Counted from the stretch's first letter, positions 7,336 through 54,922 are shown. The stretch: DNA of 64,000 nucleotides from an uncultured Gammaproteobacteria bacterium (GCA_963830105.1 CAWHLH010000003.1:856373-920372); one strand, 5' to 3'. The notes: generated by a model from the letters alone, not told the origin. Numbers and translations are program-made.

Positions 7336-7336
7336 T

Positions 7337-7837: not shown

Positions 7838-7854
7838 CCCGGGATTTTATATAA

Positions 7855-7888: not shown

Positions 7889-7956
7889 AATCGAATCCTG
7901 CCGGGCCTGATCCGGCCGATAGGGACAGTTAACGGAGGAGAACGGGCCCCGAGGCC

Positions 7957-10216: not shown

Positions 10217-10619
10217 CCCCAGAAAGCCCGGCCGGGGAACCCTGCGGGGCTGGGGCGGCAGGGGACGGAACCGGAGCCTGCAAGCCACCGCAAACCGGCA
10301 CCTGGCGATGGCGCACCGTCCCACAATGGCCCAAGGACCCCGCCTTGGCTGCACCCGTCGGTCAGCCCGGCCAGGCTCTCCGTCAATCCGCTGGCGCCGG
10401 TTGGCGGGTAACGGATAAGGATAGCCAACCGACTGTCGGGGCCCCGCGGCATACAGCGGAGCCGCAATGGTCACAGCGGAGCAGCGTTCGGCATGAGGGA
10501 GGTGTGCTCAGCGCCCGCGCTTGCAAGGCCGCGCCCCCCCGACACGGACATTGAGCCTCAACAACCCGGGGCACAATGCCCTCTTCCGCAGGCCCGACCG
10601 TGTCGATCCCAATCCCGGT

Positions 10620-11579: not shown

Positions 11580-13117
11580 CAATCGGACTCCCGGGAAAGT
11601 TCCCTGAAACGCCGCAGCTCCAGCAGCCGATAGCCGGAGTACCGCCCCAGCAACAAGACACCGGCCAGCAGCAGCAGGAGAAGCTCGGGAAAGACGAACA
11701 CCAGATGCTGCAGCCAGGACAGGTTCATGACCAGATACGCAAGCGAAGCCACCGCCAGACTGCCCAGCCCTTGCTGCAAGGCTTCGCTGCCGCCGCGTTC
11801 CTCCCAAACGATGGACATGCGTTCGATAGTCATGGTGAGGATCACCATTGGGAACAGCGCCACGGAAAGACCCTGGGGAAGACCCCACCGATGGGTGACC
11901 ACGCTCAGGGCAGCCATCAGCAGCACCACCACAATCAGCACGGCAGCCAACCGCGGCACCAACAGCAGCTTGAGCCGCTCCAAGTAGAATCGCGCCACCA
12001 GGCCCAAAGCCACCAGGAGACTGAACAGCACAACACCCCACACAAGCTGCGTCTGCCGGAACGCGAGTGCGATCAGTACCGGCATGAACGTCCCGAAGGT
12101 TTTGAAACCCACTACGTTGCGCATCACTACCAGGATGAACGCGCCCACCGGCACCAGCAGCATCACCCGGTAGACGAGTTGCGTCTCGATCGGCAGGCTG
12201 AACAGGGACAGCGCCAGCAGCTTGGGGGCCAACTGCCGCCCACGCTCGGTGGCGCCGCCCAGCGCGGTTTCCCCGCTACGGACCACTGCAAGACTCGTTT
12301 CCACCCGGTTGCCACCGCTGACCCGCACCAGCGGGCCCGGCCCATACCACCAGGTCAGGAAATCCTGCGGTAGCTCCTCGGCGCCGGACTGGACGTTGAA
12401 CGGACGCCACCGCTTATCCCCATAGACCTGCAGCCACTCCACCACTGGCGCGTCCCGTTCCAGCTCCTTCAGGTGGATACCATGTACGACCCGTGCCGGA
12501 TGCCCCGAGAGGGTGAGCAGTTCGGCGGCAACGCGGGCACGCTTCTGCGCTGTCGGGTTACGACCCAGCACGACCCGGACCCGACCGTCCTGACCGTTGA
12601 CGAGCCGGCGAACAAGCTCCGGGACAAGCGTCTCCAGGTCCGCCGAATGTGCCCGACTCTCCTCGATCAGAGACTCGGCTGCGGTGAGTTCGGCGCCGGT
12701 AAACGCCGGCTTTTCCGGCATTGGGGCGTCCGCGTCGTTGCGAGACCGCTCACCCGGGACCCGGTGCACCACTGCCCGATAGTAGAGGACCTGCTTTCCG
12801 CTGGCCTTGCGTATCGCCCACAGCACCCGCCGGTTGCCTCCGGAGGTTCCGGTAGTGATGCCGTAGTTGCGCGACACGAAAGCTTCATCACTCACCACGA
12901 ACCGGGCGCTGTCGCGGGGCAGAAGCAGCACAACCTTCGCCGCATCGCCCCTTGCCGCAAAAGCCACCCGCGCCTCCACATTCCAGCTCTCCGTGCCGCG
13001 CTTCGCAAGCAGCGGGAACCCGAGCACCAGCACCTTGAACGCGAATGCACCGAGAGACGTGATGACCAGGATCAGGACAACCGTTCTCAGGGCTCTGCTA
13101 CTGTTGTCCTGGCGCAT
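11579..13117 (-). CDS. Inactive transglutaminase-like / 7TM membrane protein
   Basis: C-terminal GFKTFGTFMPVLIALAF, LLLVPRL, FPMVILTMTIER, GRYSGYRLLEL; usual partner of the adjacent ligase. Confidence 0.85.
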   Translation of the reverse strand: MRQDNSSRALRTVVLILVITSLGAFAFKVLVLGFPLLAKRGTESWNVEARVAFAARGDAAKVVLLLPRDSARFVVSDEAFVSRNYGITTGTSGGNRRVLWAIRKASGKQVLYYRAVVHRVPGERSRNDADAPMPEKPAFTGAELTAAESLIEESRAHSADLETLVPELVRRLVNGQDGRVRVVLGRNPTAQKRARVAAELLTLSGHPARVVHGIHLKELERDAPVVEWLQVYGDKRWRPFNVQSGAEELPQDFLTWWYGPGPLVRVSGGNRVETSLAVVRSGETALGGATERGRQLAPKLLALSLFSLPIETQLVYRVMLLVPVGAFILVVMRNVVGFKTFGTFMPVLIALAFRQTQLVWGVVLFSLLVALGLVARFYLERLKLLLVPRLAAVLIVVVLLMAALSVVTHRWGLPQGLSVALFPMVILTMTIERMSIVWEERGGSEALQQGLGSLAVASLAYLVMNLSWLQHLVFVFPELLLLLLAGVLLLGRYSGYRLLELRRFRELSRESD

Positions 13118-41649: not shown

Positions 41650-42918
41650 ATGAATGCTTTCACCGTGGCCTTCGTGCTGGCCATAGGCCTTTCGGGCCTT
41701 CTGCAGGCCTGGTTGGCACGCCGTCATCTGGCCCATATCCAGGCGCGCCGCGAGCAGGTTCCCGAAGCGTTCCGGGACACCATACCGCTGGCCTCCCATA
41801 GGAAGGCCGCCGACTACACCCTGGCCCGCACCCGCCTCGGGCTGGTGGAGCTGGCCTATGGTCTGGCCCTGCTGCTGGGCTGGACCCTGGGCGGCGGACT
41901 GGATCTGCTGGATCGTCTCTGGCTGGCCGCCGGACTCGGTCCCGTGGCCACCGGCGTCGGGGTCATGACCAGCGCATTCCTTATCATGGGCCTGCTGGAT
42001 CTGCCGTTCTCGGCCTATCAGACATTCGTGCTCGAGCAACGTTTCGGATTCAACCGCACCCACATCGGCACCTTCGTGGCCGATCTTGCGAAAGAGGCGC
42101 TGCTGCTGGTGCTGCTGGGTGCCCCGCTGGCCGCTCTGGTGCTTTGGCTGATGGCAGGCGCAGGGCCGCTCTGGTGGGTTTATGTGTGGGCCGTGTGGAT
42201 GGGCTTCTCGCTGCTGATGATGTGGGCCTATCCGGCTTTCATCGCCCCGCTGTTCAATCGCTTCACCCCTCTGAACGATGAAGCGCTCAAGACCCGCATC
42301 CAGAGGTTGCTGGCCAAATGCGGATTCCGCAGCCAGGGCATCTTCGTGATCGACGGCTCCCGGCGCTCCGGACATGGCAATGCCTACTTCAGCGGCCTTG
42401 GCCGCAACAAGCGCATCGTCTTCTTCGATACCCTTCTGAACAGCCTGGAACCCAACGAAATAGAGGCGGTACTGGCCCACGAACTGGGCCACTTCCGGCT
42501 CCGGCATGTGCAGAAGCGGATGGCGTCCATGGCCATGTTCAGCATAGCTGCGCTCGCGCTGCTTGCGTGGTTGATGGGTCAGCCCTGGTTCTACAGCGGT
42601 CTGGGCGTCAGCGTGCCGTCCACCTACATGGCACTGCTGCTGTTCATGCTGGTGACCCCGACAATCGGCGTGTTCCTGCAACCGGTGTTCAGCTGGCTGT
42701 CGCGCAAGCATGAGTTCGAGGCGGACAGCTACGCGGCCACCCAGGCCAACCCGAAGGATCTGATCAGCGCGTTGGTCAAACTCTACCGGGAAAACGCCAG
42801 CACCCTGACACCCGACCCGTTATACTCCGCGTTTCACGATTCACACCCGCCCGCACCGGTCCGCGTGGCCCATCTGGCCGGCGCGCACCACAACACACCA
42901 AGCGAGGTAACGCCATGA
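41650..42918 (+). CDS. M48 family metallopeptidase (Ste24-like)
   Basis: [34 protein letters not shown]. Confidence 0.93.
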
Positions 42919-43211
42919 AACGGAACTTCTTGATTGCGCTGTTTGCGGTCGGCATGCTGGCCGGCGCCGTCGGAGCCCGGGCCGCCGACCGGCCGGCCGA
43001 TCCCTCGGCGGGCGAAGCACTGGTGAAGGCACACTGCATGCGCTGTCATGGCACCGAAGTCTACGGCAAGAACCCGCTGCATATCGCCAATCTCGACGCG
43101 CTGCGTCACCAGCTGGACAACTGCACCCATGCCAGCGGCGTGAAATGGTCTAAGCAGCAGATGGCGGACGTCATCGCCTACCTGAACAAGACCTTCTATC
43201 ACTTCAAGTGA
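42915..43211 (+). CDS. Small monoheme c-type cytochrome
   Basis: Signal peptide, CMRCH, YLNKTFYHF. Confidence 0.82.
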   Translation: MKRNFLIALFAVGMLAGAVGARAADRPADPSAGEALVKAHCMRCHGTEVYGKNPLHIANLDALRHQLDNCTHASGVKWSKQQMADVIAYLNKTFYHFK

Positions 43212-43588: not shown

Positions 43589-44548
43589 ATGGACATGACA
43601 AGGCGGGGCCGCGGCCCTCGCCGCAGCAAACGCCCCTCGGCAGACGCAGCCCCCACCCCGGCCGCCAGGGCCGGGCGGGTCGTAACCCACCACGGCCGCT
43701 CGGCGGTGGTCGAAGGCTCCCAGGGTGAACTGCGCCTTTGCACGACCAGACGCAATGTCGGAACCGTCGTATGCGGCGACCGGGTGGAATGGCTTCCCGT
43801 CGGCCCGCAGCAGGGGGTGATCCAGGCCCTGCTGGCCCGCTCGAGCCTGCTGGCCAGATCCGACACCAGCGGCCGTTCGCGAGCCCTGGCGGCCAATGTG
43901 GATCAGGTCCTGATTGTCACCGCACCCGAGCCACCACTCTCCGAAGCACTGATCGACCGCTACCTGGTTGCCGCCGAACTGCTGCCGGCCCGAGCCGTTA
44001 TCGTGGTCAACAAGATCGACCTGCTGAACACGGCCGCACGCGAAGCGTTGGCGGTCCGACTGGACGAATACGAGCGGATCGGCTATCCGGTGATCTTCAC
44101 TACACGTTACGACCCGGGCACTTTGGAACCCCTGGGCCATCACCTGCAGGACAGGATCAGTATCCTGGTAGGGCAGTCCGGGGTAGGCAAATCGTCATTG
44201 GTCAATGCGCTGGTGCCCGACCGGGACGTCCGTGTAGGCGCGCTCTCCGAGGCAACCGGGTTGGGCCGCCATACCACCAGCGCCACGACGTTGTATCACC
44301 TCGCCGAAGGCGGGGATCTGATCGACTCGCCGGGCGTACGCGACTTCCACCTGGAGAGCGTGAATACTGCGGACCTCAACCGGAGCTTCCGCGAATTCGG
44401 CCCCTACCTGGGGCAGTGCCGGTTTCACAACTGCCGGCACGACAGGGAGCCGGGCTGCGCGGTGACTGCCGCCGCCGACCGGGGTCAGATCAGCCTGCGG
44501 CGCTTGGCCTCCTATCGTCAGCTGCTGAGTTCCCTCCACCCGCAGTAG
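43589..44548 (+). CDS. rsgA: Ribosome small subunit-dependent GTPase RsgA
   Basis: AANVDQ, NKID, GQSGVGKSS, GRHTT, DSPG, CRFHNCRH..EPGC. Confidence 0.95.
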   Translation: MDMTRRGRGPRRSKRPSADAAPTPAARAGRVVTHHGRSAVVEGSQGELRLCTTRRNVGTVVCGDRVEWLPVGPQQGVIQALLARSSLLARSDTSGRSRALAANVDQVLIVTAPEPPLSEALIDRYLVAAELLPARAVIVVNKIDLLNTAAREALAVRLDEYERIGYPVIFTTRYDPGTLEPLGHHLQDRISILVGQSGVGKSSLVNALVPDRDVRVGALSEATGLGRHTTSATTLYHLAEGGDLIDSPGVRDFHLESVNTADLNRSFREFGPYLGQCRFHNCRHDREPGCAVTAAADRGQISLRRLASYRQLLSSLHPQ

Positions 44549-44740: not shown

Positions 44741-44753
44741 TAACAAATTGATA
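44741..44753 (-). promoter_or_regulatory. IHF binding site
   Basis: TATCAATTTGTTA, exact match to WATCAANNNNTTR in an AT-rich patch upstream of a sigma54 promoter. Confidence 0.6.
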
Positions 44754-44871
44754 TATCAGTAACAATTTTGAAACAACCGCCTCCGAACGCGTCAACAACT
44801 TTTACAGCACAGTACCAGGGGGGAAATGGGCGCTATAAGCAAGCCTATGAATTAGCGGCCATTATATAGGA

Positions 44872-44887
44872 TGGCACCCCGCTTGCA
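44872..44887 (+). promoter_or_regulatory. Sigma54 (-24/-12) promoter of the regulator-porin operon
   Basis: TGGCAC-CCCGC-TTGCA, consensus GG-N10-GC. Confidence 0.75.
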
Positions 44888-45223
44888 GATGTTCGCTCCT
44901 AGCGCAATATTGTGGGGGCGAGGCTATGGAAAGTGCTCGCGCACCAACTCGTACAGTGCACTTCGACCCTTGTGTGGTGACCGCCGCGCCGATCACCACA
45001 CGGTTTTCCGCACGTCCGGCCTGCCGCCATCGGCCCGACCCACGGGCCGTCGCTCACTCCCGCCATCGAGTCGCGCACAGTCGCCCGGCGCACGCGCAGT
45101 TGACGTCGGGCAGCCAATGGCTTGTGCCTTGGCAGCATTTGTTGTCGCCCGCCTTGCCCCGACGCGGGGTCCTCTCCCCATGCTCCCCGTCGTCGCACCC
45201 CATGGAGATCAGGAGTTTCGATC

Positions 45224-46603
45224 ATGGAACGACAAAGAATCATCTATCTGAAGCCGCCGACCGACAGCGCCTCACTGGAGAATCAGCTCACCAGCGCCGA
45301 TTGGGCGGTGGCGGCCACCACCGACATCGACACGGCGGCACACTGGTCCCAGGATCGCGGCGTGTGCGTCGGACTGATCCACTTCAGCGAAACCCATCTG
45401 GAACAGCACAAGCACGCAATTGAAGGCCTCATGGCGGTCAACCCCAACCTGGAGTGGATCGGTGTCTTGCCCAGGGAACTGCTCGAGGCCGCCATCCGTA
45501 GCGGACTGGTTCCCGGTTTTCTGTTCGATTACCACACGCTGCCAATCGATCTGCCACGGTTGCTGCACACCATCGGCCATGCCTGCGGCATGGCAAACGC
45601 CAACCAGCAGGCATCCTTCCTCTTGAGCGAGCCCGCGGAGCGAGTCATGATCGGCAGCAGTGCCGCCATGCAGTGCGTCGTCCAGAACATCCGCAAAGTC
45701 GCCGGCGTCGACGCCCCGGTGATGATCACCGGCGAGAGCGGGACGGGAAAGGAACTCGCGGCACGCGCCATACACGCTCAGTCCCCGCGCCGCCGCGGAC
45801 CGTTTCAGGCCATCAATTGCGGCGCCCTGCCCACCCACCTCATTCAGTCGGAACTGTTCGGTCACGAAAAAGGCGCATTCACCGGGGCCCACCGACGCCA
45901 CACCGGTCGCATAGAAGCGGCGAACGGCGGCACGGTTTTCCTGGACGAGATCGGCGACCTGTCCCTGGATCTTCAGGTCAACCTGCTGCGCTTCCTGCAG
46001 GAAGGTACGATCGAGCGGATAGGCAACACCGAACCGCTGCGGGTGAATGGCCGCGTGATAGCGGCGACCCACGATGACTTGCAGGAAGCCGTGCAACGGG
46101 GTCGTTTCCGCGAGGATCTGTACTACCGCCTGAACGTGCTGCACCTGAGGCTACCGCCGCTTCGAGAGAGGCGCGAGGACATCGAAGCTCTGGCGGAGCA
46201 CTACTTCCACCAATACCACCGGGAACGGAACCGCAATGTACGCGGATTCAGCCGCCACGCTCTGGACGCGCTGAAAGCCTACGACTGGCCGGGAAACGTT
46301 CGTGAACTGGTGAATCGCGTACGGCGGGCGACCATCATGTGCGAACATCGGCTCATCTCCCCCGCCGAGCTGGGACTGGACGCCAAGACCGTCGCCCAGG
46401 GTGCGTCTGCGACGCTGGCCCATGCGCGCAGCATGGCCGAACGTCAGGCAATACTGGACTCCCTGATGCTGACCAACAACAACATTTCGGAGGCGGCCCG
46501 CCGACTCGGCGTGGCACGCGTCACGCTATACCGCCTGATGGACAAATACGGCCTTGCTATACCTAACCGGTCCGGTGGCGAGCCCATGCACTCGCGCGCA
46601 TGA
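45224..46603 (+). CDS. Sigma54-dependent enhancer-binding protein, VpsR-like N-terminal domain
   Basis: [35 protein letters not shown], Fis-type HTH; atypical receiver ending FDYHTLP; AGGAG RBS. Confidence 0.9.
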
Positions 46604-46644
46604 GCGGTACCCGGGACGGCGTCAACAACAGGGGGAGAATCGCC

Positions 46645-48015
46645 ATGGGAAGAGGTTTGCGGGTGACAGCCCTGCACCTGGGGCTGATCGCGGCGCTTGC
46701 CGCCGGCAACGTCACTGGAGAAACACTGGGTGGGAAACTGGACAAACTGCAGAAGGCCCTGGAGCGGCAGGACCGCGTCGCGGCCCGGCAGCGCGAGCGG
46801 CTCGCCGAACAGGCCCGCGAACTGGCCCGTCAACGGGCGCTGATCGAACAGCAGCTTCGCGACCTGGACGCCCTGCGCCGGCGCACGATGGCCACGCGGC
46901 AGATGGAACACGCACGGGGTGCCGGTCCCGGCGCACCCGCCACGAGGGACAACACCGAACCCGCAAGAGCAGCGGCACGTCCCGCAGCCCAGACGCCGGC
47001 GGCCGCCACCCGGCAGGTGGCACAGGCGCAAACCGGCAGCAAGCCCGTCGGCCAGGCGCCCGCATCGACCGAGAAACCACCCCAGATCCAATCGATCGCC
47101 GAGATAGGCGGCATCCTGACGCCTGAAGGACACTGGGTCCTGGAACCGACGCTCCAGTACTCCAATTCCCAGGTCAACCAATTCACGTTCCTGGGCGTGC
47201 AGATCCTCGACACGTTTCTGATCGGCATCCTGGAGGCCCAGGACCAGGATCGCAACATTCTGTCGCCGTCCCTCACGGTGCGTTACGGCCTGACCAACCG
47301 CATGGAACTGGAGGCAAAGATCCCGTACATCTGGCGCGACGACACCTTGAAGGCGGCCATCCCCCAGGCCACCCAGGGCGACCAGTCGACGCAGATCACC
47401 CGCAACCTGCGCGGGTCGGGCATCGGCGATGTGGAGATCGCCGCCCATTACCAGATCAACCGGGGGCTGGGCGGCTGGCCCTATTTCATCGGGAACCTGC
47501 GCTACAAGTCGACGACCGGCAAAGGGCCTTTCGATGTCAGCCGCAACGCGGACGGCATCGAAACGGAACTTGCCACCGGCTCGGGTTTCCAGGCTATCGA
47601 ACCCAGTGTCACCATCCTGTTTCCTTCGGACCCGGCGGTGTTCTTTGCCAACGTGGGCTACGACTTCAACCTGAAGAGCAACGTCAACAAAACCTTCTCA
47701 GTCAGCGGTAGCCAGCCCCAGACCGTGCAGGAGGTGGACCCCGGAGATGCCTTCCGCATGAGCTTTGGCATGGCCTATGCCATCAACCAGGCGGCCTCAT
47801 TCACCCTCGGCTACAAGGCCGACTTCATCCAGAGCACCGATACGACGATCAACGGCGTCAAGCTCAGCTCGTCGAGCCTTAAGCTGGGAGCAATGCTGCT
47901 CGGCTTCGGCTATCGCATCAACGACCACACAAGCGCCAACGTCAATCTGGAACTCGGCGTCACCGCCGATGCCCCCGACGTGACCATGACCCTGCGGGTT
48001 CCCTACGCCATGTGA
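46645..48015 (+). CDS. FapF-like outer-membrane beta-barrel transporter with N-terminal coiled coil
   Basis: Signal peptide, coiled coil, Ala/Pro linker, VRYGLTNRMELEAKIPYIWR, GIGDVE, ATGSGF, SDPAVFF, C-terminal LRVPYAM; alternative start at 46600. Confidence 0.75.
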   Translation: MGRGLRVTALHLGLIAALAAGNVTGETLGGKLDKLQKALERQDRVAARQRERLAEQARELARQRALIEQQLRDLDALRRRTMATRQMEHARGAGPGAPATRDNTEPARAAARPAAQTPAAATRQVAQAQTGSKPVGQAPASTEKPPQIQSIAEIGGILTPEGHWVLEPTLQYSNSQVNQFTFLGVQILDTFLIGILEAQDQDRNILSPSLTVRYGLTNRMELEAKIPYIWRDDTLKAAIPQATQGDQSTQITRNLRGSGIGDVEIAAHYQINRGLGGWPYFIGNLRYKSTTGKGPFDVSRNADGIETELATGSGFQAIEPSVTILFPSDPAVFFANVGYDFNLKSNVNKTFSVSGSQPQTVQEVDPGDAFRMSFGMAYAINQAASFTLGYKADFIQSTDTTINGVKLSSSSLKLGAMLLGFGYRINDHTSANVNLELGVTADAPDVTMTLRVPYAM

Positions 48016-48208
48016 GCGCGTCCGGAACTGACGGATCGACTGGCGTAAAGGGAGTTGTTGCGCCGGCCGCGCATGTCCAACGTGGCACTCGGCTGCCTCG
48101 GCTGCTCACAACATACGGGGAAGCGTCTACAAAAGATGAACAGAGGAACGGGCCCGACGACTGACAGGCCTAACCTCCGGCGCCGGCGATTTTCGACGCC
48201 TCTCCGGG

Positions 48209-48826
48209 TCAGGGCAGCTGCCCGCTCTGAAGGCCTATTCTGTTGCTCAACAACGTGTCGCGTACCGCCTGCTGAAACTCTTTGAAACGGGCCACGCCAA
48301 CCGTGATATTGAGCTGCTGCTGAATCTGGCGGTCGCTGGCGGTGTTGACCAACAGCCCGATCACCCGGCTCTGGCTGATGTCATGGACCGCGAGCGTCGT
48401 GCCTTTGGCGTCCTGTACGATCACTCCGCCACCCGCCGCGACACCGGCGAGATCGGCTCCCTTCAAACCCGCCGCAGCCAGTCGTGCCGCCGTGGCCGCA
48501 TCCACCGGCCGCCCCGCACCACCGATCACCTGCTGCCCGCTCAGTTGCCCGCTATCATTCACGGTAAACGTGCTCTGCAATGCCAGCTGACCGTCGATGA
48601 CCGTGCGAACCTGAGCTCCGAACTCGAACTTCATGCCGGCGAAGTCGAAGCCCCCGCGGCGCTCGGCCAGATCCTGCTCACTGACCGCCGTCAGTCCCGC
48701 GAACGGGTGCGGCCCGACGGGTCCGGCCGCGGCGGGACAAACCCATCCCGGGACCGCGCTGGCGGCGAGCGCCAGCGCGCAGCGCGCGCCTACCCGGCCC
48801 ATGATGCGTGCCAACAGGACGGCCAT
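48209..48826 (-). CDS. Secreted FapE-like accessory protein
   Basis: Signal peptide, VSEQDLAERRGGF...FEFG motif, NTASDRQIQQQLNI; next to the C39 peptidase. Confidence 0.55.
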   Translation of the reverse strand: MAVLLARIMGRVGARCALALAASAVPGWVCPAAAGPVGPHPFAGLTAVSEQDLAERRGGFDFAGMKFEFGAQVRTVIDGQLALQSTFTVNDSGQLSGQQVIGGAGRPVDAATAARLAAAGLKGADLAGVAAGGGVIVQDAKGTTLAVHDISQSRVIGLLVNTASDRQIQQQLNITVGVARFKEFQQAVRDTLLSNRIGLQSGQLP

Positions 48827-48830
48827 CGCG

Positions 48831-49541
48831 CTATCTCCCGAATTCGTTGATGCCGGGAAGGTTCAAGGTGAACATCCCCAGTCCTGAAAACGGCCTGCCT
48901 TCGGCAATCGGCGGTTGGGGCCAGATACGCCAGTCGCGCTCGGTGTTGAAGTGCGCGCGGGCAATATTGATTCGACCGCGGGCCGCCAGCACGGGGCCGT
49001 CCCAGATCCTTTCGAATGCCCGGCGCGGCAGCGCCACAGACCCCGCCGCCGGATCCGCCAGCAGCACGCGGTCACCCTCGATGCCTTTGATCACCACAAA
49101 GTGCTTGTAGCCGCGGGTATTGACCAGGGCGATCATGGGTACACCGATCTTTGCGATCTGGTCCAGCGTCATCCTGAAACCGTCGGAGTGCAGTCCCCGA
49201 CTGTCCAGATAACGCTTCATGTCGAGCATGGAGAATCCGTATGTACGGATCTTGCGTTGATCGCCGACCCGGAACATGGCCTTGAATACTGCGGCTTCCG
49301 GCGTCGGCATATCGTAGTGGTAGGTCAGTAGGGTGGAGATGGCCGCCGATCCACAGCTGTAGTCGTAGCGCTGGTGAACAACGGTCTGCCAGCGCGCCTC
49401 GCCCAGGCTGGACACCGGGACATTGTAGGCACCGGCCACCCCTTCGATGTGCAGTGCACCGGCATGGGCGAAGCCCGCCAACAGTGCACCGGCCAGGACC
49501 GCCAACCACCTGCTCTGGGGCTTACTCCGGGGCTTGCTCAT
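48831..49541 (-). CDS. Periplasmic C39 family peptidase (FapD-like)
   Basis: Signal peptide; VHQRYDYSCGSAA (Cys), GFSMLDMKRY, YKHFVV (His), LADPA (Asp); no ABC domain. Confidence 0.9.
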   Translation of the reverse strand: MSKPRSKPQSRWLAVLAGALLAGFAHAGALHIEGVAGAYNVPVSSLGEARWQTVVHQRYDYSCGSAAISTLLTYHYDMPTPEAAVFKAMFRVGDQRKIRTYGFSMLDMKRYLDSRGLHSDGFRMTLDQIAKIGVPMIALVNTRGYKHFVVIKGIEGDRVLLADPAAGSVALPRRAFERIWDGPVLAARGRINIARAHFNTERDWRIWPQPPIAEGRPFSGLGMFTLNLPGINEFGR

Positions 49542-49571
49542 GAGCCGTCCCTGGGACCGCGCCACGCGACC

Positions 49572-49943
49572 CTATTGGAGATTGAAGGTCACACCGATGG
49601 CCGCGTCCACCGCGTTGTTGTTGCCCGTCACGATATTGAACAACCCCACCCCCCCGAAGTGATCGAGGGCATTCGGCCCGATGGTCACGCTACCGCTGTT
49701 GATGGTACCCGCCTGGAAGCTGCTGCCGTTAATGGTGGCCGCCAGGTCCTGATTGCTCTCAACGGTGATGGTGGTATGCCCTTCGCGACCTCGAAACTGC
49801 GCCAGTTCCGAACCGTCAACGGTGGCCGCCGTGGCAAACATGTCGTCACTGGCACCGGCGGCACTGACGCCAGCGGCCAGACATGTGCCTCCGCTGGCCA
49901 GCACGGCAGCCACCAGCATCCATCCCCCTACTTGCATTCTCAT
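49572..49943 (-). CDS. Small secreted FapB-like protein (single amyloid-type repeat)
   Basis: Signal peptide, VDGSELAQFRG, SGSVTIGPNALDHFGGVGLFNIVTGNNNAV...VTFNL. Confidence 0.6.
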   Translation of the reverse strand: MRMQVGGWMLVAAVLASGGTCLAAGVSAAGASDDMFATAATVDGSELAQFRGREGHTTITVESNQDLAATINGSSFQAGTINSGSVTIGPNALDHFGGVGLFNIVTGNNNAVDAAIGVTFNLQ

Positions 49944-50031
49944 GGCACGATCCCTCGTCCAGGCCTGCCTGATGGCGCTACCGCTGCGGGCCGGCGGGCC
50001 CCATGCCCACCGGCCCGCCCGCCCACATCGG

Positions 50032-51381
50032 TCAGGGGCCGCCGACCGCCGACCCGCTGCCGATGCTCACACCCGAATTGGCGGCGATGGACACGCCACC
50101 GAGGGTGGAGTTGTACAACCCCGACGAGATGTTGATGTTGGCGATGCCGCCGAAGGTACCGGTGCCACCAGCCACCGCAACGCTCGCTCCGCCGGTGCTG
50201 AGGGTGCCGCCGCCGCCGAGGCCGCCATTGCCGCCGGCACCACCGTCACCACCCATACCGCCGTTACCGCCGTTACCGCCGGCACCGCCCATGCCACCGG
50301 AAGCCACGTTGCCGCCATTGTTGGTGGTGCCGCCATCACCGCCTGTGCCCCCGCTACCGGAGTTGGCGCTGTTGCCGCCATTGTTGGTGGTGCCACCGGC
50401 ACCACCCGCACCGCCCGCACCGGCGTTGGCTGTGTTGGCGCCGTTGTTGATGGTGCCGCCGTCGCCTCCCGTGCCGCCGTTGCCGGCATTAGCGGTATTG
50501 CCGCCGTTGCCGGTATCGCCGCCGTTGCCGCCGTTGCCCGCGGCATTGGTGCTGCCACCGCTGCCACCGCCGTCGCCGGTACCGTTGTTGCCGGCATAGA
50601 CCGAACCGCCGTCGCCGCCCTGGGCGTTGCCCGCGCCGGTGGCGTAACCCCCGTCGCCGGCAGTGTTGCCGCCACCGCCGTTGGCATTGCCCGATCCGGA
50701 AGCGCCACCGTTGGATTGTCCGTTCAAGCTCTCGGACGAATCGACAGCAACACTATGACCACCGTGGCCCCCATCGCCGCCATAGGCGCCGTTGGCGCTG
50801 CCATTACCGCTGGCGTGGCCACCGTCACCGCCGATATTGCCGCCGCCGCCATTGGCATTGCCGGAACCGCTGGCGCCGCCACTGCCATTCAGGCTGGTGG
50901 GCTGACCGTCGGTCCCGTTCTGGTAGCCAGTCCCGGACGAACCCCCGTTGCCGCCAGCACCGCCGTAGGCACTACCACCATAGCCGCCGTCACCACCGCT
51001 GGCACCGGCGCCGCCCACACCACCGTACACCCGTATGGGGGCACCGGTGACGGTAGAGGTCAGGGTCTGGTAGGAAATCACCTCGACATCGGTGTTGAAG
51101 GACTCGCTGTAGGCATGCGCGGTCCCGCCCGCGCCGCCCATGCCAGCACCGGTGGCCGTGCCACCGTCACCACCGGCTCCCGTACCGGTGGGACTGGCGT
51201 TACCGCCGGCGCCGCCGCTGACGCTGCCGCCGTTGCCGCCGTTCGCGGTTGCGGTAGCCATCGAGTCCACGGTAGCCAGGTTGCCATTGCCGAACGTATT
51301 TCGCGGATTGGCATAGGCCGTACTGGCCGCCGCCACGGCGAGAGCCAGCACCGACAGACTCATCGTGATTGGCTTGTACAT
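50032..51381 (-). CDS. Secreted glycine-rich repeat protein, paralog 3
   Basis: CAGGAGAG RBS, signal peptide (AYA-NP), AYSESFNTDVEVISYQTL motif, GGx repeats, C-terminal FGGIANINISSGLYNSTLG. Confidence 0.85.
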   Translation of the reverse strand: MYKPITMSLSVLALAVAAASTAYANPRNTFGNGNLATVDSMATATANGGNGGSVSGGAGGNASPTGTGAGGDGGTATGAGMGGAGGTAHAYSESFNTDVEVISYQTLTSTVTGAPIRVYGGVGGAGASGGDGGYGGSAYGGAGGNGGSSGTGYQNGTDGQPTSLNGSGGASGSGNANGGGGNIGGDGGHASGNGSANGAYGGDGGHGGHSVAVDSSESLNGQSNGGASGSGNANGGGGNTAGDGGYATGAGNAQGGDGGSVYAGNNGTGDGGGSGGSTNAAGNGGNGGDTGNGGNTANAGNGGTGGDGGTINNGANTANAGAGGAGGAGGTTNNGGNSANSGSGGTGGDGGTTNNGGNVASGGMGGAGGNGGNGGMGGDGGAGGNGGLGGGGTLSTGGASVAVAGGTGTFGGIANINISSGLYNSTLGGVSIAANSGVSIGSGSAVGGP

Positions 51382-51468
51382 GACACTCTCCTGTTGTCCT
51401 GTTGCCGGCCGGGCCCGGTTAAACCGGACCCGGCCTCTCCCTTGTGTCACTCCCTACGACACATCACA

Positions 51469-52683
51469 TCAGGGACTGGCTGTCCCGCTGCCGATGCTCA
51501 CACCACTGTGGGCCGCAACCGACACGCCCCCCAGAGTGGAGTTGTACAAGCCCGATGAGACATTCACGTTGCCAATGCCGCCAAACGCGCCGGCACCCAA
51601 CGCCACATTGACGTTGCCCGTGGTAAGGGCGCCGCCGTTGCCGGCACCACCGGCACCGCCATTGCCACCGGTACCGCCGTTGCCACCGGTACCGCCGGCG
51701 CCGCCGGCCGCCCCGGCACCGCCGTAGGCCATGTTGCCGCCGTTGTTGGTGGAACCGCCGTTGCCGCCGGCACCGCCGTTGCCGCCATTCGCGGTGTTGC
51801 CCCCGTTGCTGGTGGAGCCACCGGTACCGCCATTACCGGCCGCGCCCCCATCGGCGGTGTTGGTGCCGTTGGCGGTGGAGCCACCGGTCCCGCCGGAACC
51901 ACCGGCACCCCCATTGGCACTGTTGGTGCCGTTGGCCGTCGAGCCGCCGGCGCCGCCATCACCCGCGGTGTTGCCGCCGCCGCCATCGCCGGTGTTGCTG
52001 CCGGCATTGACGCCTCCGCCCGCGCCACCATAGGCATCGCCGTTTCCGCTCGCAGTGCCACCATAGCCGCCGGTGTTACCGCCACCACCGTTGGCATTCC
52101 CCGCACCGGAGGCCTGGCCTCCATAGCCGCCGGAGCCGCCACCGCCGCCGTCGGCGCTGCCGTCACCATAGGCGGTACCGCCGGCACCGCCCACGTTGCC
52201 GCCGCCACCGTTGGCATTCCCCGCACCGGAGGCCTGGCCTCCATAGCCGCCGTTGCCGCCCGATGCGCCGTCTGCGTTGCCGCCGTTGCCGCCGGAGGCC
52301 CCGTAGCCACCGTCACCACCTGTGCCTCCCCAGACGCGAACGGGCGATCCGGTGACCGTGGAGGTGAGGGTCTGGTAGGAGATCACCTCAATATCGGAAT
52401 TGAACGACTCGCTGTAAGCCTTGGTGTCGGCACCGCCGGCTCCGCCGGCTCCGGCCGTGTCCGCGGCCCCGCCGGCGCCACCGTTCCCTCCGCTTCCGCC
52501 GTTTCCTCCGTTGCCCCCGTAGACGTCACCGCCGTAGCCGCCATTGGCGTTTGCGGTGGCACTTGATGTCACCGTCGCGGTGTTGTCATTGCCGAACTTG
52601 TTCTTCGGATTGGCATAGGCGCTGCTTGCGGCCGCAACGGCCAAGGCGACAGCGGAGACACCCACTAACATCGGTTTGTACAT
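51469..52683 (-). CDS. Secreted glycine-rich repeat protein, paralog 2
   Basis: AAGGAG RBS, same signal/N-terminal/central/C-terminal motifs as its neighbours. Confidence 0.85.
   Translation of the reverse strand: MYKPMLVGVSAVALAVAAASSAYANPKNKFGNDNTATVTSSATANANGGYGGDVYGGNGGNGGSGGNGGAGGAADTAGAGGAGGADTKAYSESFNSDIEVISYQTLTSTVTGSPVRVWGGTGGDGGYGASGGNGGNADGASGGNGGYGGQASGAGNANGGGGNVGGAGGTAYGDGSADGGGGGSGGYGGQASGAGNANGGGGNTGGYGGTASGNGDAYGGAGGGVNAGSNTGDGGGGNTAGDGGAGGSTANGTNSANGGAGGSGGTGGSTANGTNTADGGAAGNGGTGGSTSNGGNTANGGNGGAGGNGGSTNNGGNMAYGGAGAAGGAGGTGGNGGTGGNGGAGGAGNGGALTTGNVNVALGAGAFGGIGNVNVSSGLYNSTLGGVSVAAHSGVSIGSGTASP
52085..52252. repeat. Identical 48-bp direct repeat, 120-bp period, inside paralog 2
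   Basis: ccaccgttggcattccccgcaccggaggcctggcctccatagccgccg at 52085-52132 and 52205-52252. Confidence 0.85.
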
Positions 52684-52770
52684 GGCTCACTCTCCTTAGT
52701 TTGGCTTCGTTTCAGAGCTTCCAGGGAACCACTTGCCCCTTGGTGCCCTGTATTCCGCGTTCCGCCTGCC

Positions 52771-53985
52771 TCAGTTGCCGATACTCACATTGGAGTGCGC
52801 CGCCACCGACACAGCACCCAACGTGGAGTTGTACAGCCCGGACGAGACGTTGATGTTGGCAATGCCGCCGAAGGTTCCGGCACCGACCGCGACGTTGACA
52901 TTGCCGGTGCTCAGCATGCCGCCCGCACCGTCTCCGCCATTGCCGCCCGTGCCACCATTGCCACCGGCACCACCCGTGCCGCCAGCGCCGCCGGTGCCGC
53001 CGTCGCCGCCATAGGCCATGTTGCCGCCGTTGGTGGTAGTACCACCGGCACCGCCGGCACCGCCATCACCGCCATTGGCACTGTTGGCACCATTGCTGGT
53101 GCTGCCACCACCGCCTCCATCGCCGCCTGCGGCCGCATTGGCGCTGTTGCCCCCATTGCTGGTGCTGCCGCCCGCGCCGCCGGTACCGCCGTCACCGGCG
53201 TTGGCGCTGTTGCCACCATTGCTGGTGGTGCCGCCAGCTCCACCGGCTCCAGCGGTGTTGTCGCTGCCGCCGTTGCCGCCGTTGTTGCCGGAATAGACGC
53301 TCCCGCCCGCGCCTCCATGGGCGTTTCCGTCTCCGGATGCGTCCCCGCCGTCGCCGCCGTAATTGGCTGCGCCGCCGTTGGCATTGCCTTGAGCCGTGGC
53401 CGATCCGCCCGAGCCGCCGGAACCGGCGGAGCTGCCGTTCGCGCTGCCGTCACCCCAGGCCTCGCCGCCGTTGCCGCCGTAGTTGCCGCCGCCCCCGTTG
53501 GCGTTGCCTGAACCCGATGCCGTGCCGCCGTCGGCGCCGTGTCCGCCACTGGCGCCGTCTGCGGAACCGCCGTTGCCGCCATAGCCGCCATCGGCACCGT
53601 TGCCGCCGAGGCCGCCATAGACACGGATCGGTGCGCCAGTGACCTGGGAATTCAAGGTCTGGTAGGAAATCACTTCGATATCGGTGTTGAACGATTCGCT
53701 GTAGGCGTGGGCGGTGCCGCCGGCGCCACCGGCCCCGGCCGTACTGGCGCTGCCACCGGCGCCGCCGGCACCTGTGCCGGTGGTGTCAGAGGTTGTGCCG
53801 CCGGCACCGCCGTTACCGCCGGTTGCGGAGCCGCCGTTGCCGCCATTGGCGTTGGCCATGGCCGTAGAGTCCACCGTCGCCGTGTTGGAGTTTCCGAACT
53901 TGTTCTTCGGATTGGCGTAGGCGCTGGTGGCAACCGCCACGGACAGTGCGACCGCCGACATACCTATCAAGAGTGGCTTGTTCAT
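52771..53985 (-). CDS. Secreted glycine-rich repeat protein, paralog 1
   Basis: GGAGG RBS before ATG 53985, MNKPLLIG signal peptide, same conserved motifs. Confidence 0.85.
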   Translation of the reverse strand: MNKPLLIGMSAVALSVAVATSAYANPKNKFGNSNTATVDSTAMANANGGNGGSATGGNGGAGGTTSDTTGTGAGGAGGSASTAGAGGAGGTAHAYSESFNTDIEVISYQTLNSQVTGAPIRVYGGLGGNGADGGYGGNGGSADGASGGHGADGGTASGSGNANGGGGNYGGNGGEAWGDGSANGSSAGSGGSGGSATAQGNANGGAANYGGDGGDASGDGNAHGGAGGSVYSGNNGGNGGSDNTAGAGGAGGTTSNGGNSANAGDGGTGGAGGSTSNGGNSANAAAGGDGGGGGSTSNGANSANGGDGGAGGAGGTTTNGGNMAYGGDGGTGGAGGTGGAGGNGGTGGNGGDGAGGMLSTGNVNVAVGAGTFGGIANINVSSGLYNSTLGAVSVAAHSNVSIGN

Positions 53986-54135
53986 TCGCGTACCTCCACT
54001 GATCATTCCCTTTGTGAGGCGTTCCCTTGTTTGCGCGGGATGGCGCCCTTTCCCTCCCGGGGTCGCAGCCTGCCGCGGGGGTACTCCCCTGCCCGCACAC
54101 CGGCACGGCCATACAGGCTGGCTCACAGCACTTAT

Positions 54136-54151
54136 AGCAAGGCGCGTGCCT
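54136..54151 (-). promoter_or_regulatory. Sigma54 (-24/-12) promoter of the glycine-rich operon
   Basis: Minus strand AGGCAC-GCGCC-TTGCT (GG-N10-GC), ~150 bp upstream of ATG 53985. Confidence 0.75.
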
Positions 54152-54169
54152 ATCGGCGAAGCAACGTGT

Positions 54170-54182
54170 TAATTGGCTGATA
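54170..54182 (-). promoter_or_regulatory. IHF-like binding site
   Basis: TATCAGCCAATTA fits WATCAR-N4-TTR, just upstream of the -24 element. Confidence 0.55.
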
Positions 54183-54577
54183 AACAAAACGAATTACCAC
54201 TTTCGAGCCCTATGGACTCCCCGTGGCCGAGGCCCCTCTTGGCAGTCCACCGTTACAGGACAAGTCGGGGGGCGCCGCCGGATTGCACCGGAGGACGGTC
54301 CGCAGCCGCCGCCGGACCTCGAACCCGCTCCAGGCTTGACGTTTATTTGACTTTCAGATTAGCCACTTGCATGGCGTTTTCGGGTAGGGCGACGAACCGT
54401 GAACGCAGAGTTCAACGCCAGCCCGCGGCAACCGAAGGCTGTATGAAGGTGTTTCGCGGCTGTGACAACCGCCGGTACCAAGGGTTGGGAAGATCGAAGA
54501 AAAGAGACTACTTATCAGACCGATCGAACAATTCAAAGGACTGTGCCAGCTACGTAACAGAAACGGCCAGCCGCCCC

Positions 54578-54922
54578 TCAACCGGGCGGCCAGGCCATGG
54601 GCCTGCCGCCCAGCACATGCAGATGGATGTGAAATACGGACTGGCCGGCCTCGGGATTGCAGTTCATGACCGTCCGGTAGCCCCGTTCCTGGACCTGGGC
54701 GTCGGCCGCCACCTGCTGGGCGGCGAGGAACATCCGGCCAACCAGCGACTCGTCCCCCGCACGCAGATCATTGAGAGTCGCGATGTGGCGCTTGGGCACC
54801 ACCAGTACATGCAGGGGGGCCTGCGGATTGATATCCCGGAACGCCATCACCTGGTCGTCCTCGTAGACCACGTCGGGCTCGATGTCCCCATTGACCATCT
54901 TGCAGAACAGGCAATCGCTCAT
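54578..54922 (-). CDS. hinT: HIT family nucleotide-binding protein
   Basis: MSDCLFCK, AFRDINPQAPLH, GQSVFHIHLHVLGGR..WPPG. Confidence 0.93.
   Translation of the reverse strand: MSDCLFCKMVNGDIEPDVVYEDDQVMAFRDINPQAPLHVLVVPKRHIATLNDLRAGDESLVGRMFLAAQQVAADAQVQERGYRTVMNCNPEAGQSVFHIHLHVLGGRPMAWPPG

Follow-up and report, generated by a model that had tools for sequence, protein, structure and literature searches.

A locus for glycine-rich proteins in an uncultured gammaproteobacterium, distantly related to the Fap machine of Pseudomonas

In a 64,000-nucleotide stretch of DNA from an uncultured Gammaproteobacteria bacterium (the window, at its full length) we identified a locus encoding an uncharacterised and distant relative of the amyloid-export machine Fap of Pseudomonas, apparently built for the export of three unusual Gly-rich proteins. 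In our judgement it is probably a FapD/FapF-type system for secretion and assembly, related to Fap but of a distinct sister family and under sigma54 control, for which export and fibre formation are inferred. The locus belongs to a widespread, unannotated sister family of Fap, not to Fap proper. The first-pass annotation of this DNA had called it a Fap-type machine, which holds for the FapF and FapD homologues and for a distant relative of FapE, but not for membership of Fap proper (146 bits against a cut-off of 700, 135 against 330, and a separate clade). It had also expected a fibre or matrix of a kind that it did not recognise as described. Literature searches found no characterised close cluster. 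The locus is not unique, as the sister family is widespread.

The locus consists of two convergent units flanked by rsgA and a HIT-family gene (RsgA_GTPase domain, 1e-50; HIT domain, 9.7e-31), so that the ORFs and flanking domains agree with the earlier description of two convergent operons between rsgA and hinT. The plus-strand unit comprises a sigma54 enhancer-binding protein (EBP) and an outer-membrane barrel, whose start overlaps the EBP stop codon (ATGA), which suggests a single operon. The minus-strand unit starts with G3 and encodes three Gly-rich proteins (the cargo), followed by p123, a C39 peptidase and p205. The features are as follows:

44872–44887, plus strand: sigma54-type -24/-12 site, TGGCAC-N5-TTGCA, no mismatches; the EBP start lies about 337 nt downstream
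45122–46603, plus strand: EBP (ORF, Pfam), likely start at the MERQ codon, 45224
46600–48015, plus strand: FapF-type barrel (ORF, NCBIfam, PDB, Pfam), alternative start 46645
48209–48826, minus strand: p205, FapE-like secreted protein of 205 aa (leave-out HMM, hhalign)
48831–49565, minus strand: stand-alone C39 peptidase, FapD homologue (Pfam, NCBIfam, PDB), likely start 49541
49572–49943, minus strand: p123, secreted protein of 123 aa (leave-out HMM, hhalign)
49944–50031, minus strand: intergenic spacer G1/p123, containing a GC-rich hairpin of 14 bp
50032–51381, minus strand: G1, Gly-rich, 449 aa, 36% Gly (ORF, composition)
51382–51468, minus strand: intergenic spacer G2/G1, containing a GC-rich hairpin of 13 bp
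51469–52683, minus strand: G2, Gly-rich, 404 aa, 38% Gly (ORF, composition)
52771–53985, minus strand: G3, Gly-rich, 404 aa from the MNKP start, 35% Gly (ORF, composition)
54136–54151, minus strand: sigma54-type -24/-12 site, AGGCAC-N5-TTGCT, 1 mismatch, 151 nt upstream of G3
54567–54593, minus strand: terminator-like hairpin 3' of the HIT-family gene

The hairpin at 54567–54593 marks the upstream boundary of the cargo operon. As to the spacer hairpins, the one between G2 and G1 (-37.7 kcal/mol, z -4.2) folds better than all 200 shuffles, and the one between G1 and p123 (-51.5 kcal/mol, z -1.7) is weak, since 15 of 200 shuffles fold equally well. Comparison of G1–G3 with their same-genus orthologues places 66–69% of the substitutions at third codon positions (153/231, 164/239 and 161/243), a bias that marks them as genuine genes in the stated frame. 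Opposite G1–G3, on the plus strand, the long Ala/Pro-rich ORFs are antisense shadows. Signal peptides were called by eye, from a basic N-terminus, a hydrophobic run and an AYA/NP site.

The barrel protein is composed of a signal peptide, a heptad (coiled-coil-like) segment (aa 41–96), an Ala/Pro/Gln linker and the barrel domain (aa 174–469). In the heptad segment L/I/V/M/F occupy 56% of the a/d positions, a value attained by 0.15% of 2000 shuffles. Profile searches identified NCBIfam FapF as a match over nearly the whole model (1.2e-42, 146 bits, profile positions 20–418 of 420), and residues 174–469 match the solved FapF structures (5o65/5o67/5o68; E 1.6e-26); FilC (3.9e-21, 76 bits) and Pfam Phenol_MetA_deg (1.9e-8) were also found. 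The NCBIfam equivalog cut-offs are 700 bits for FapF, 330 for FapD, 630 for FilC and 475 for FilB. By these profiles the barrel is a FapF homologue far under the equivalog cut-off, and hence no equivalog. The claim that the plus-strand operon pairs a sigma54 EBP with an outer-membrane barrel carrying an N-terminal coiled coil is in agreement with the Pfam, NCBIfam and PDB matches, the heptad segment and the linker. The peptidase, with a signal-peptide-like N-terminus (by eye), matches Pfam Peptidase_C39 (PF03412; 3.5e-20, 72.6 bits, gathering cut-off 22), NCBIfam FapD (1.8e-39, 135 bits), NCBIfam FilB (6.2e-33, 114 bits) and the double-glycine protease domain of PDB 6mpz (1.3e-8). Its catalytic residues Gln65, Cys71, His155 and Asp171 are invariant in 18/18 aligned sequences, and judged by these matches it is, as had been proposed, a FapD homologue, with intact catalytic residues and a score below the equivalog cut-off.

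For comparison we took 20 FapF-type loci of the same class. All 20 have a C39 gene close to the barrel gene, and cargo genes co-occur too. The barrel tree splits variant (14) and canonical FapF (5) sequences with 100/100 support, the groups having been set from neighbouring genes, with L055 alone verified by NCBIfam. This canonical locus yields strong matches throughout (FapF 412.6 and FapD 284.3 bits; FapC 6.1e-53, FapB 6.9e-29, FapE 6.6e-33). None of the eight proteins of the window's locus matched the FapA, FapB or FapC models at E<=10, and the identity to canonical proteins of the same class is about 28–30% for the barrel and about 35–43% for the peptidase. The variant-type gene order is cargo, small protein, C39, FapE-like protein, barrel. 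Cargo in these loci is hypervariable, being N/S/T-rich, Fap-repeat-rich or Gly-rich (the last in at least 4 of the 14 other variant-type loci): L047 and L048 encode cargoes with four Fap-like repeats each, and cargo in related loci has long low-complexity N/S/T/D-rich regions and a single C-terminal repeat. The window shares with the variant family a barrel within the variant clade, members of the small-protein and FapE-like families, and the ANP pattern at the cargo N-termini.

p205 had no match in Pfam or NCBIfam, the FapE model included, but was recovered by a leave-out HMM built from other loci (E 2.4e-13). The HMM of this family matches canonical FapE proteins (2.1e-6, 6.5e-5 and 2.2e-3), and hhalign aligned the family with FapE at 92.4% probability (E 5.2e-7) over just 41 columns; on these alignments p205 is a distant FapE relative. 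It also bears a C-terminal motif. p123 matched the leave-out HMM of the small proteins only weakly (E 5.6e-4, residues 16–123), although best among the window's ORFs. The small-protein family comprises at least 1185 clusters, of which none of the 120 listed has a Pfam domain, and hhalign relates it to the p205 family (96.6%, E 4.8e-10, 92 columns). From these profile comparisons p123 belongs, as a divergent member, to a small-protein family that is widespread and paralogous to that of the FapE-like proteins. It is not detectable as a FapB: it has no match to NCBIfam FapB at E<=10 and groups with the FapE-like paralogues instead. The earlier description of the minus-strand operon stands for the three paralogous Gly-rich proteins, the C39 peptidase and the further secreted protein. 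p123, however, is not clearly a repeat protein: it has a single C-terminal motif, which resembles the C-termini of G1–G3 (local alignment z 2.4–3.8, a score attained by 1–14 of 500 shuffles). The AlphaFold2 model of p123 is of low confidence (mean pLDDT 50.1, 121 sequences).

The FapE-like proteins share a leader motif, for which the canonical double-glycine leader consensus served as the yardstick. In 13 of these proteins it reads V/A/L at -12, S at -11, E (54%) at -8, L (85%) at -7, M/L (76%) at -4, R (92%) at -3, G (100%) at -2 and G (92%) at -1. The same motif, one register over, is found in 121 small proteins (L 100%, R 98%, G 91%, G 76%), where p123 reads RGREG instead of the RGG of most members. 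In p205 the segment, resembling a double-glycine leader, is VSEQDLAERRGG/F (residues 48–60), with Arg at -4 in place of the family's Met/Leu. When the C39 domain was modelled in complex with p205 residues 36–100, the score was 0.76 (best of 3 controls, 0.01), a mark attained by 58/80 solved complexes and 2/110 mismatched pairs; at least 41% of the contacts were common to three runs, and the partner pLDDT was at least 45. The modelled interface involves peptidase residues 69–72 and 154–156, around Cys71 and His155, and p205 residues 45–48, 50 and 52–60, including R57-G58-G59. As C39-leader complexes have already been solved, this pass may reflect likeness to known structures. The leader motif of the FapE-like families, which the model docks onto the C39 active site, could reveal the cleavage target of the C39 peptidase. 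Fap proteins are without canonical C39 sites, in the available text of Rouse 2017.

G1–G3 are 67–72% identical to one another and consist of 35–38% Gly, 11% Asn and 1% Gln; each gene contains 3.2–4.4 copies of a 63-nt (21-residue) repeat. They occupy the major-subunit position and have no match to NCBIfam FapB or FapC at E<=10, in keeping with the proposal that the FapC slot is filled by three Gly-rich proteins of ~400–450 aa, although at 404–449 aa "giant" overstates their size. Their sole family match is Pfam GRP (E 0.0044), below its cut-off. Cargo of this type is rare (43 matches, mostly fragments, in 1.84 billion representatives). The HMM of the C-terminal repeat of mainstream cargo matches the small proteins with E-values of 1e-7 to 9e-5, and canonical FapB with 7e-5 to 1.7e-3. 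Neither this HMM nor that of other Gly-rich cargoes matched G1–G3, and hhalign of their C-termini was not significant, with E 0.19–0.24 against mainstream cargo or FapB and E 0.08–0.19 against FapB or FapC. Two database sequences, P0146 and P0149, are recovered both by the profile of window-type cargo (2.0e-7 and 1.5e-6, among 1.84 billion proteins) and by the mainstream repeat HMM (1.5e-3 and 7.4e-7). We place G1–G3 in the cargo family because of their gene position, the shared N-terminal pattern and these two bridging sequences. The AlphaFold2 model of G2 is of low confidence (mean pLDDT 42.6) and has short strands every 20–21 residues between 151 and 314.

The EBP combines a VpsR-type N-terminal domain, an AAA+ domain and a Fis-type HTH (Pfam VpsR 1.6e-15, Sigma54_activat 5.4e-71, HTH_8 4.6e-9), and its translation contains GAFTGA. 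EBPs 47–55% identical occur in 14 of the 20 fetched loci, variant and canonical alike, and the genome encodes rpoN (505 bits). Sigma54-like sites are at chance level over the window (3 found, 3.0 expected). The same-genus locus L041 has a 1-mismatch site (7144–7159) at the equivalent place upstream of its EBP gene, and in the orthologous locus a sigma54-type site lies 152 nt upstream of the cargo gene matching G3. Across loci, such sites occur within 250 nt upstream of 9/15 cargo gene starts, against 0.8% expected per upstream interval (binomial 6e-16, a figure from loci that are not independent). In P. fluorescens the c-di-GMP-sensing EBP BrfA controls fapA (PMC13101488, in the part available).

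We propose that the EBP, probably responding to c-di-GMP in analogy to BrfA, would activate sigma54 promoters ahead of two operons, the one that it forms with the barrel gene and the six-gene cargo operon; all six products of the latter would cross the inner membrane via Sec. In the periplasm the C39 peptidase would recognise the hydrophobic-S-x-x-E/D-L-x-x-x-R-G-G segment of p205, and probably of p123, and cut after the glycine pair. The processed FapE-like proteins may prime or open the barrel and serve as initiators at the surface, and G1–G3 would traverse the barrel unfolded, then assemble extracellularly. The C-terminal motif of G1–G3, present in diverged form in p123, is a likely docking or templating element, and the Gly/Asn-rich 21-residue repeats would make up the bulk of a fibre or matrix, either wound into a beta-solenoid (about 20 residues to the turn) or as a flexible polymer rich in Gly.

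It is rather unlikely, in our estimate, that the Gly-rich proteins are secreted without forming an amyloid-like fibre, as soluble or loose surface or matrix proteins (coat, adhesin, hydrogel), with the C-terminal motif acting as an export or anchoring signal alone. The low-confidence, mostly unstructured models of G2 and p123 favour this possibility, the N/S/T/D-rich regions and one C-terminal repeat of related cargo would suit a displayed disordered domain, and the window's cargo is short of the Gln typical of Fap repeats. However, the Asn/Gly repeat of 21 residues has a regular form, which the paralogues conserve, strands recur with its period even in the G2 model, and the related L047 and L048 cargoes carry Fap-like repeats. 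Fap and curli subunits are likewise disordered as monomers. For Fap this is stated in a preprint.

That the locus is simply the Pseudomonas Fap operon, orthologous to the canonical one but diverged in its subunits, is most improbable. In favour of it, NCBIfam gives FapF and FapD as the best matches, p205 has a relationship to FapE, and canonical fap loci of the class are also accompanied by an EBP of this family. Against it, the scores lie far below the equivalog cut-offs and below those of L055; FapA, FapB and FapC have no match at E<=10, whereas L055 matches FapB and FapC strongly; the barrel clade is separate and the gene order different. The FilB and FilC matches notwithstanding, membership in the putative pilus system Fil of Acinetobacter (FilB peptidase, FilC barrel) is very unlikely: FapD and FapF are matched more strongly, and the Fil scores are far under the cut-offs (114 vs 475 and 76 vs 630 bits); because the canonical L055 FapD and FapF match FilB and FilC about equally, we regard these as superfamily-level matches, and no other Fil model matched any locus protein. 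We also give hardly any credence to a COG4313/MetA-type channel for hydrophobic compounds, or a peptidase for a bacteriocin-like peptide, with the Gly-rich genes as unrelated neighbours. The barrel does match Phenol_MetA_deg, and double-glycine peptides are the usual targets of C39 domains, yet barrel, C39 and cargo occur together in 20/20 loci, the coiled-coil-like N-terminus and linker are FapF features, an ABC transporter is absent from the locus and a sigma54-type promoter precedes the cargo genes. COG4313 operons are without an associated C39 peptidase, as far as the available part of Rouse 2018 (PMC6173800) goes.

Our preferred reading, a Fap-related system of a sister family, is best appreciated against Pseudomonas Fap itself (FapA–F; 5O65/5O67/5O68). 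Both have a barrel with a periplasmic coiled coil and linker (trimeric and 12-stranded in FapF, according to the available parts of Rouse 2017 and 2018, the latter PMC6173800), a periplasmic C39 peptidase that retains the active-site Cys and His, an accessory protein related to FapE (distantly so in the window), secreted subunits of low complexity that would use Sec and contain an N/G-rich repeat motif, and probably control by a sigma54 EBP (cf. BrfA in P. fluorescens, PMC13101488, in the part available). Unlike Fap, a single fapABCDEF operon, the window has two convergent units without FapA, FapB or FapC, and with an additional small FapE paralogue. By the NCBIfam models at E<=10, G1–G3 and p123 do not match FapC and FapB, the subunits with three imperfect N/Q-rich repeats; the major-subunit slot holds three proteins of 35–38% Gly, which have 21-residue repeats and a single, divergent motif at the C-terminus. 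The variant FapE-like proteins have a clear leader of the double-glycine type, ending in RGG, at the place where canonical FapE reads RGR. Rouse et al. (2018, J Mol Biol, PMC6173800) reported that five further phyla have homologues of fapD and fapF within less than 5 kb of each other, and the window's locus is presumably of the same kind; in its available part that work is a census, whose account does not include the cargo, the FapE-like and small-protein families, the leader motif or the regulator.

Acinetobacter Fil (pilus_FilB, pilus_FilC) resembles the locus in its C39 peptidase and FapF-superfamily barrel, but differs in the scores and missing components given above. With curli (CsgA/CsgB/CsgG) the comparison is by analogy alone: unfolded N/Q/G-rich repeat subunits are secreted and polymerise outside the cell with a minor nucleator, but the machinery is unrelated. 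PE_PGRS, plant glycine-rich and snow-flea antifreeze proteins share with G1–G3 a Gly-rich GGx composition, and the likeness to PGRS and snow-flea proteins noted in the first-pass annotation does not extend beyond it. Peptidase-containing ABC transporters (6MPZ, 4RY2) have the same C39 fold and catalytic residues, whereas the window's peptidase is a free periplasmic protein. The leader-like pattern of the FapE-like family, hydrophobic(-12)-S(-11)-E(-8)-L(-7)-hydrophobic(-4)-G(-2)-G(-1), resembles double-glycine leaders. This leader, however, follows a Sec signal peptide within a protein of 120–260 aa and is distinguished by a near-invariant Arg at -3.

The locus consists of two convergent units, which lie between an RsgA GTPase gene and a HIT-family gene. 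Its features and flanks, in window coordinates, are the following:

43589-44548, RsgA GTPase gene (Pfam PF03193, 1e-50)
45122-46603, plus strand, ORF with a likely start at 45224, sigma54 enhancer-binding protein (EBP; Pfam Sigma54_activat 5.4e-71, VpsR domain 1.6e-15, HTH_8 4.6e-9)
46600-48015, plus strand, outer-membrane barrel of 471 aa, its start overlapping the EBP stop
52771-53985, minus strand, Gly-rich protein G3, the most upstream gene of the minus-strand unit
51469-52683, minus strand, Gly-rich protein G2, downstream of G3
50032-51381, minus strand, Gly-rich protein G1, downstream of G2
49572-49943, minus strand, p123, a small protein of 123 aa, downstream of G1
48831-49565, minus strand, C39 peptidase, downstream of p123
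48209-48826, minus strand, p205, a protein of 205 aa, last of the minus-strand unit
HIT-family gene, the flank on the other side (Pfam PF01230, 9.7e-31), with a terminator-like hairpin on its 3' side

The first-pass annotation had described a Fap-like locus with three Gly-rich genes, and this observation was confirmed by the two convergent units, their ORFs and the substitution bias typical of real genes. Comparison of the three Gly-rich genes with their same-genus orthologues places 153/231, 164/239 and 161/243 substitutions at third codon positions, and G1-G3 are genuine genes in the minus-strand frame. Long Ala/Pro/Thr-rich ORFs (up to 601 aa) that cover 50000-54200 on the plus strand, e.g. 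49753-51558, were rejected as genes because the third-position bias favours the minus frame; they are shadows of the GGN-rich coding sequence. The minus-strand spacers after G2 (51382-51468) and after G1 (49944-50031) are 87-88 nt long and carry GC-rich hairpins of 13-14 bp without U tracts (z -4.2 and -1.7, respectively), while the G3-G2 spacer has no such hairpin (z -0.2). These hairpins may stabilise the mRNA or terminate it in part, and in this way set how much cargo is made relative to the accessory proteins. We also noted a plus-strand ORF of 98 aa at 42915-43211 whose start resembles a signal peptide and which contains a CxxCH motif, reminiscent of a small c-type cytochrome, for which a Pfam search at 1e-5 returned no match.

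The barrel matches nearly the whole NCBIfam FapF profile (1.2e-42, 146 bits against a cut-off of 700), and its residues 174-469 match the solved FapF barrels 5o65, 5o67 and 5o68 (1.6e-26). Residues 41-96 show a heptad pattern equalled by 0.15% of shuffles and are followed by an Ala/Pro/Gln linker; a heptad-type N-terminus followed by a linker is also the FapF layout given in the accessible part of Rouse et al. The peptidase exceeds the Pfam C39 threshold and matches NCBIfam FapD (1.8e-39, 135 bits against a cut-off of 330), and its Gln65, Cys71, His155 and Asp171 are invariant in 18/18 aligned relatives. These similarities would be expected of a canonical Fap orthologue, but the FapF and FapD scores lie below the cut-offs and the subunits match no FapB, FapC or FapE model, so this identity was rejected. 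With permissive thresholds, p205, p123 and G1-G3 matched no NCBIfam or Pfam family, except for a match of G2 to Pfam GRP that stays below the GRP cut-off. In contrast, L055, a locus of the canonical fap kind found in this class, matches the NCBIfam models: FapC 6.1e-53, FapB 6.9e-29, FapE 6.6e-33, FapF 1.6e-123 and FapD 4.9e-85. The Fil system and a COG4313 uptake channel were likewise rejected as identities of the locus, as was bacteriocin export as its function. Judged from its sequences, the machine, which includes the only FapF-like gene of its genome, is related to Fap but lies outside it. The claim that a Fap-like machine carries Gly-rich proteins in the position of the major subunit is supported by homology, gene order and regulation. 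The subunits, for their part, exclude the locus from Fap proper.

Barrel homologues were found in 36/401 genomes sampled from the class, and we fetched 20 of these loci (L041-L060, about 4-20 kb each). All 20 have a C39 gene near the barrel, and 14/20 encode an EBP 47-55% identical to that of the window. The barrels of 14 loci (L041-L054) are 34-82% identical to the window's, and where complete these loci share one gene order: cargo gene(s), a protein of ~115-160 aa, C39, a protein of ~150-260 aa, and the barrel. The other six (L055-L060) have barrels 28-30% identical to the window's and resemble fap operons of the canonical type. In a maximum-likelihood tree of the barrel domain, 14 variant and 5 canonical loci form separate groups with 100/100 support, with L059 left ungrouped, the groups set by neighbouring genes and only L055 verified with NCBIfam. 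According to these comparisons the window locus belongs to a sister family of the Fap machine that is widespread and has no name. In the literature, part of which was accessible only in extracts, we found no description of this variant system; the supplement of Rouse 2018 may list fapD/fapF pairs.

In two genomes of another taxonomic family (L044 2656-5678 and L045 10648-18648) the variant locus adjoins oligoribonuclease-, M48 peptidase- and RsgA-like genes, followed in L045 by ybaB- and dnaX-like genes, the names being a reading of the end sequences by eye. The window has the same neighbourhood (M48 at 41650-42918, RsgA and YbaB confirmed by Pfam, dnaX by eye), which suggests that the position of the variant locus is old and vertically kept. 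One same-genus genome possesses a second variant-type locus (L050, G001:C1:14300-34299, about 4798-12038) with two cargoes (27-28% Gly, with the C-terminal repeat of the mainstream cargo), a small protein, C39, a FapE-like protein of 257 aa, a barrel and an EBP. Small secreted proteins with a common 'ILWDE' motif (L047 12030-12422, L054 10611-11102, L055 15049-15468) are encoded by some variant loci and, in a canonical locus, by a gene upstream of FapB, with none in the window; they may be a further accessory component. The one of the three scanned against NCBIfam, that of L055, gave no match.

With the window and its orthologue left out of the training set, a profile-HMM of the ~150-260 aa family matches p205 over its full length (2.4e-13) and canonical FapE proteins at 2.1e-6, 6.5e-5 and 2.2e-3. 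Profile-profile comparison of the p205 family with FapE gave 92.4% probability (E 5.2e-7) over 41 columns only. The small-protein family of p123 aligns with this FapE-like family over 92 columns (hhalign, 96.6%, E 4.8e-10) and is, on profile similarity, its paralogue. The match of p123 itself to the corresponding leave-out HMM is weak (E 5.6e-4), yet the top one among all ORFs of the window. The small-protein family comprises at least 1185 clusters at E<=0.001 among 8000 candidates scored; no Pfam domain was present in the 120 clusters listed, and any source name they bear reads 'hypothetical protein'. One iterative HMM drifts across families and served as a lead only.

Both families share the form V/L-S-x-x-E/D-L-x-x-x-R-G-G directly after the signal peptide (in the window, the products of 48209-48826 and 49572-49943). 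In 13 FapE-like proteins this segment has V/A/L at -12, S at -11 (38%), E at -8 (54%), L at -7 (85%), M/L at -4 (76%), R at -3 (92%), G at -2 (100%), G at -1 (92%) and F at +1 (85%); position by position, this matches the double-glycine leader that C39 domains recognise. The same pattern recurs in 121 small proteins (L 100%, R 98%, G 91%, G 76%). Canonical FapE has RGR in place of the RGG of the variant family, and the window's own proteins are imperfect examples, with Arg at -4 in p205 and RGREG in p123. When the C39 domain was modelled together with p205 residues 36-100, the complex scored 0.76 versus 0.01 for the best of 3 controls, a mark reached by 58/80 solved complexes and 2/110 mismatched pairs, and since leader-C39 complexes have already been solved, this pass indicates a resemblance and is no proof. 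At least 41% of contacts recur between the runs, with a partner pLDDT of at least 45, and the modelled interface comprises residues 69-72 and 154-156 of the peptidase and residues 45-48, 50 and 52-60 of p205. We propose the leader-like segment as a candidate cleavage site for FapD-type peptidases. In the accessible part of Rouse 2017, the target of the FapD C39 peptidase is still open, and FapE is reported as the only protein for which no peptides from the first ~70 residues were seen.

The cargo proteins encoded by the related loci have three elements in common: a signal peptide ending in A-x-A and followed by N-P, a hypervariable low-complexity body and, at the C-terminus, a repeat with the pattern GI(T/S)QVxQNxGxNxxxQQxVxVQAN. 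Some loci have bodies rich in N/S/T/D, with 4-6% Gly; those of L046, L050 and L054 contain 27-29% Gly. Three genes (L047 10658-11644, L047 14139-15044, L048 6893-7804) encode four tandem Fap-like repeats (DNTIKDNAFQxAEGITQVQQNNGxNNAMQQ), which places this cargo midway between canonical FapC and cargoes with a single repeat; a perfect sigma54-type site lies ~100-115 nt upstream of each gene. The mainstream repeat is itself Fap-like, as its HMM matches small proteins (1e-7 to 9e-5) and canonical FapB (7e-5, 1.3e-4, 1.7e-3).

G1-G3 are 67-72% identical to each other, contain 35-38% Gly and 11% Asn, and each gene carries 3.2-4.4 copies of a 63-nt (21-residue) repeat. They were matched neither by the HMM of the mainstream cargo C-terminus nor by that of the other Gly-rich cargoes, and hhalign of their C-termini with FapB, FapC and mainstream cargo gave nothing significant. 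Within the locus, G1-G3 and p123 do resemble each other at the C-terminus (z 2.4-3.8). When 1.84 billion representatives were searched exhaustively with a profile of six window-type proteins, 43 reached E<=0.001, most of them fragments (14 at <=1e-10, 2 at <=1e-30). Two of these, P0146 and P0149, also match the mainstream repeat HMM (1.5e-3 and 7.4e-7) and bridge the two types of cargo. All components of the locus drifted from a Gln-rich to a Gln-poor motif, which would fit parts that need to match each other.

Window-type cargo was present in 3/41 genomes (40 relatives and the window's own), all from the window's genus; among the genomes searched, it is a rare type confined to that genus. The window's own genome contains no extra copies of G1-G3. 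A word-index search with whole G2 found nothing at E<=0.001, low-complexity words having probably swamped the candidates. ESM Atlas matches were only hypothetical-protein clusters without Pfam families, and the automatic name 'Chalcone isomerase domain-containing' of one cluster was dismissed as lacking family support. DNA sequencing runs with the locus sequence come from soil and sediment metagenomes, mostly with small shares; the listing included no RNA run. AlphaFold2 models of G2 (10 sequences, mean pLDDT 42.6) and p123 (121 aligned sequences, 50.1) were too poor for fold searches. The G2 model has short strands every 20-21 residues between 151 and 314 (pLDDT 50-60), and both models are compatible with a ~21-residue beta-solenoid and with disordered monomers alike. 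A leader-like motif candidate was also spotted by eye within the cargo: ISYQTLTSTVTG|A.

A perfect TGGCAC-N5-TTGCA lies ~337 nt upstream of the EBP and a one-mismatch sigma54-type site 151 nt upstream of G3; a sigma70-like promoter was sought upstream of G3 and not found. The 3 sites found across the window equal the 3.0 expected by chance; it is their position that is informative. Across loci, sites with at most one mismatch occur on the coding strand within 250 nt upstream of 9/15 cargo gene starts, compared with ~0.8% expected per 250-nt window (binomial 6e-16, which overstates the case because several loci are close kin). The genome encodes rpoN. In P. fluorescens, according to the accessible part of PMC13101488, control of the fap genes lies with the c-di-GMP-sensing EBP BrfA, and by analogy the VpsR-type N-domain of the window's EBP would fit a similar sensor.

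Export and fibre formation by the locus are inferred. We consider it possible, and on balance rather unlikely, that the sister family builds 'bottle-brush' surface fibres with a stacked-repeat core, a displayed variable domain and C39-licensed secretion. The single Fap-type C-terminal repeat of each cargo molecule would stack with the repeats of the small protein and a FapE-like initiator, and the core would display the hypervariable low-complexity domain, in the window's genus one of 35-38% Gly with 21-residue repeats. Secretion would be licensed when the periplasmic C39 peptidase removes the double-glycine-type leader from FapE-like proteins. If this is true, the long-sought substrate class of FapD-type peptidases would be identified; with the recognisable leader on FapE-like proteins, a simple cleavage assay is enough to ask what the protease cuts. 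In this genus the Gly-rich cargo would represent a novel type of matrix protein secreted by bacteria, and perhaps a fibre material not seen before. To our knowledge, only two dedicated amyloid export pathways of Gram-negative bacteria are well studied, and Fap is one of them; the locus and its relatives show that its FapD/FapF core also serves a second family, which is widespread and whose cargo is different and varies greatly.
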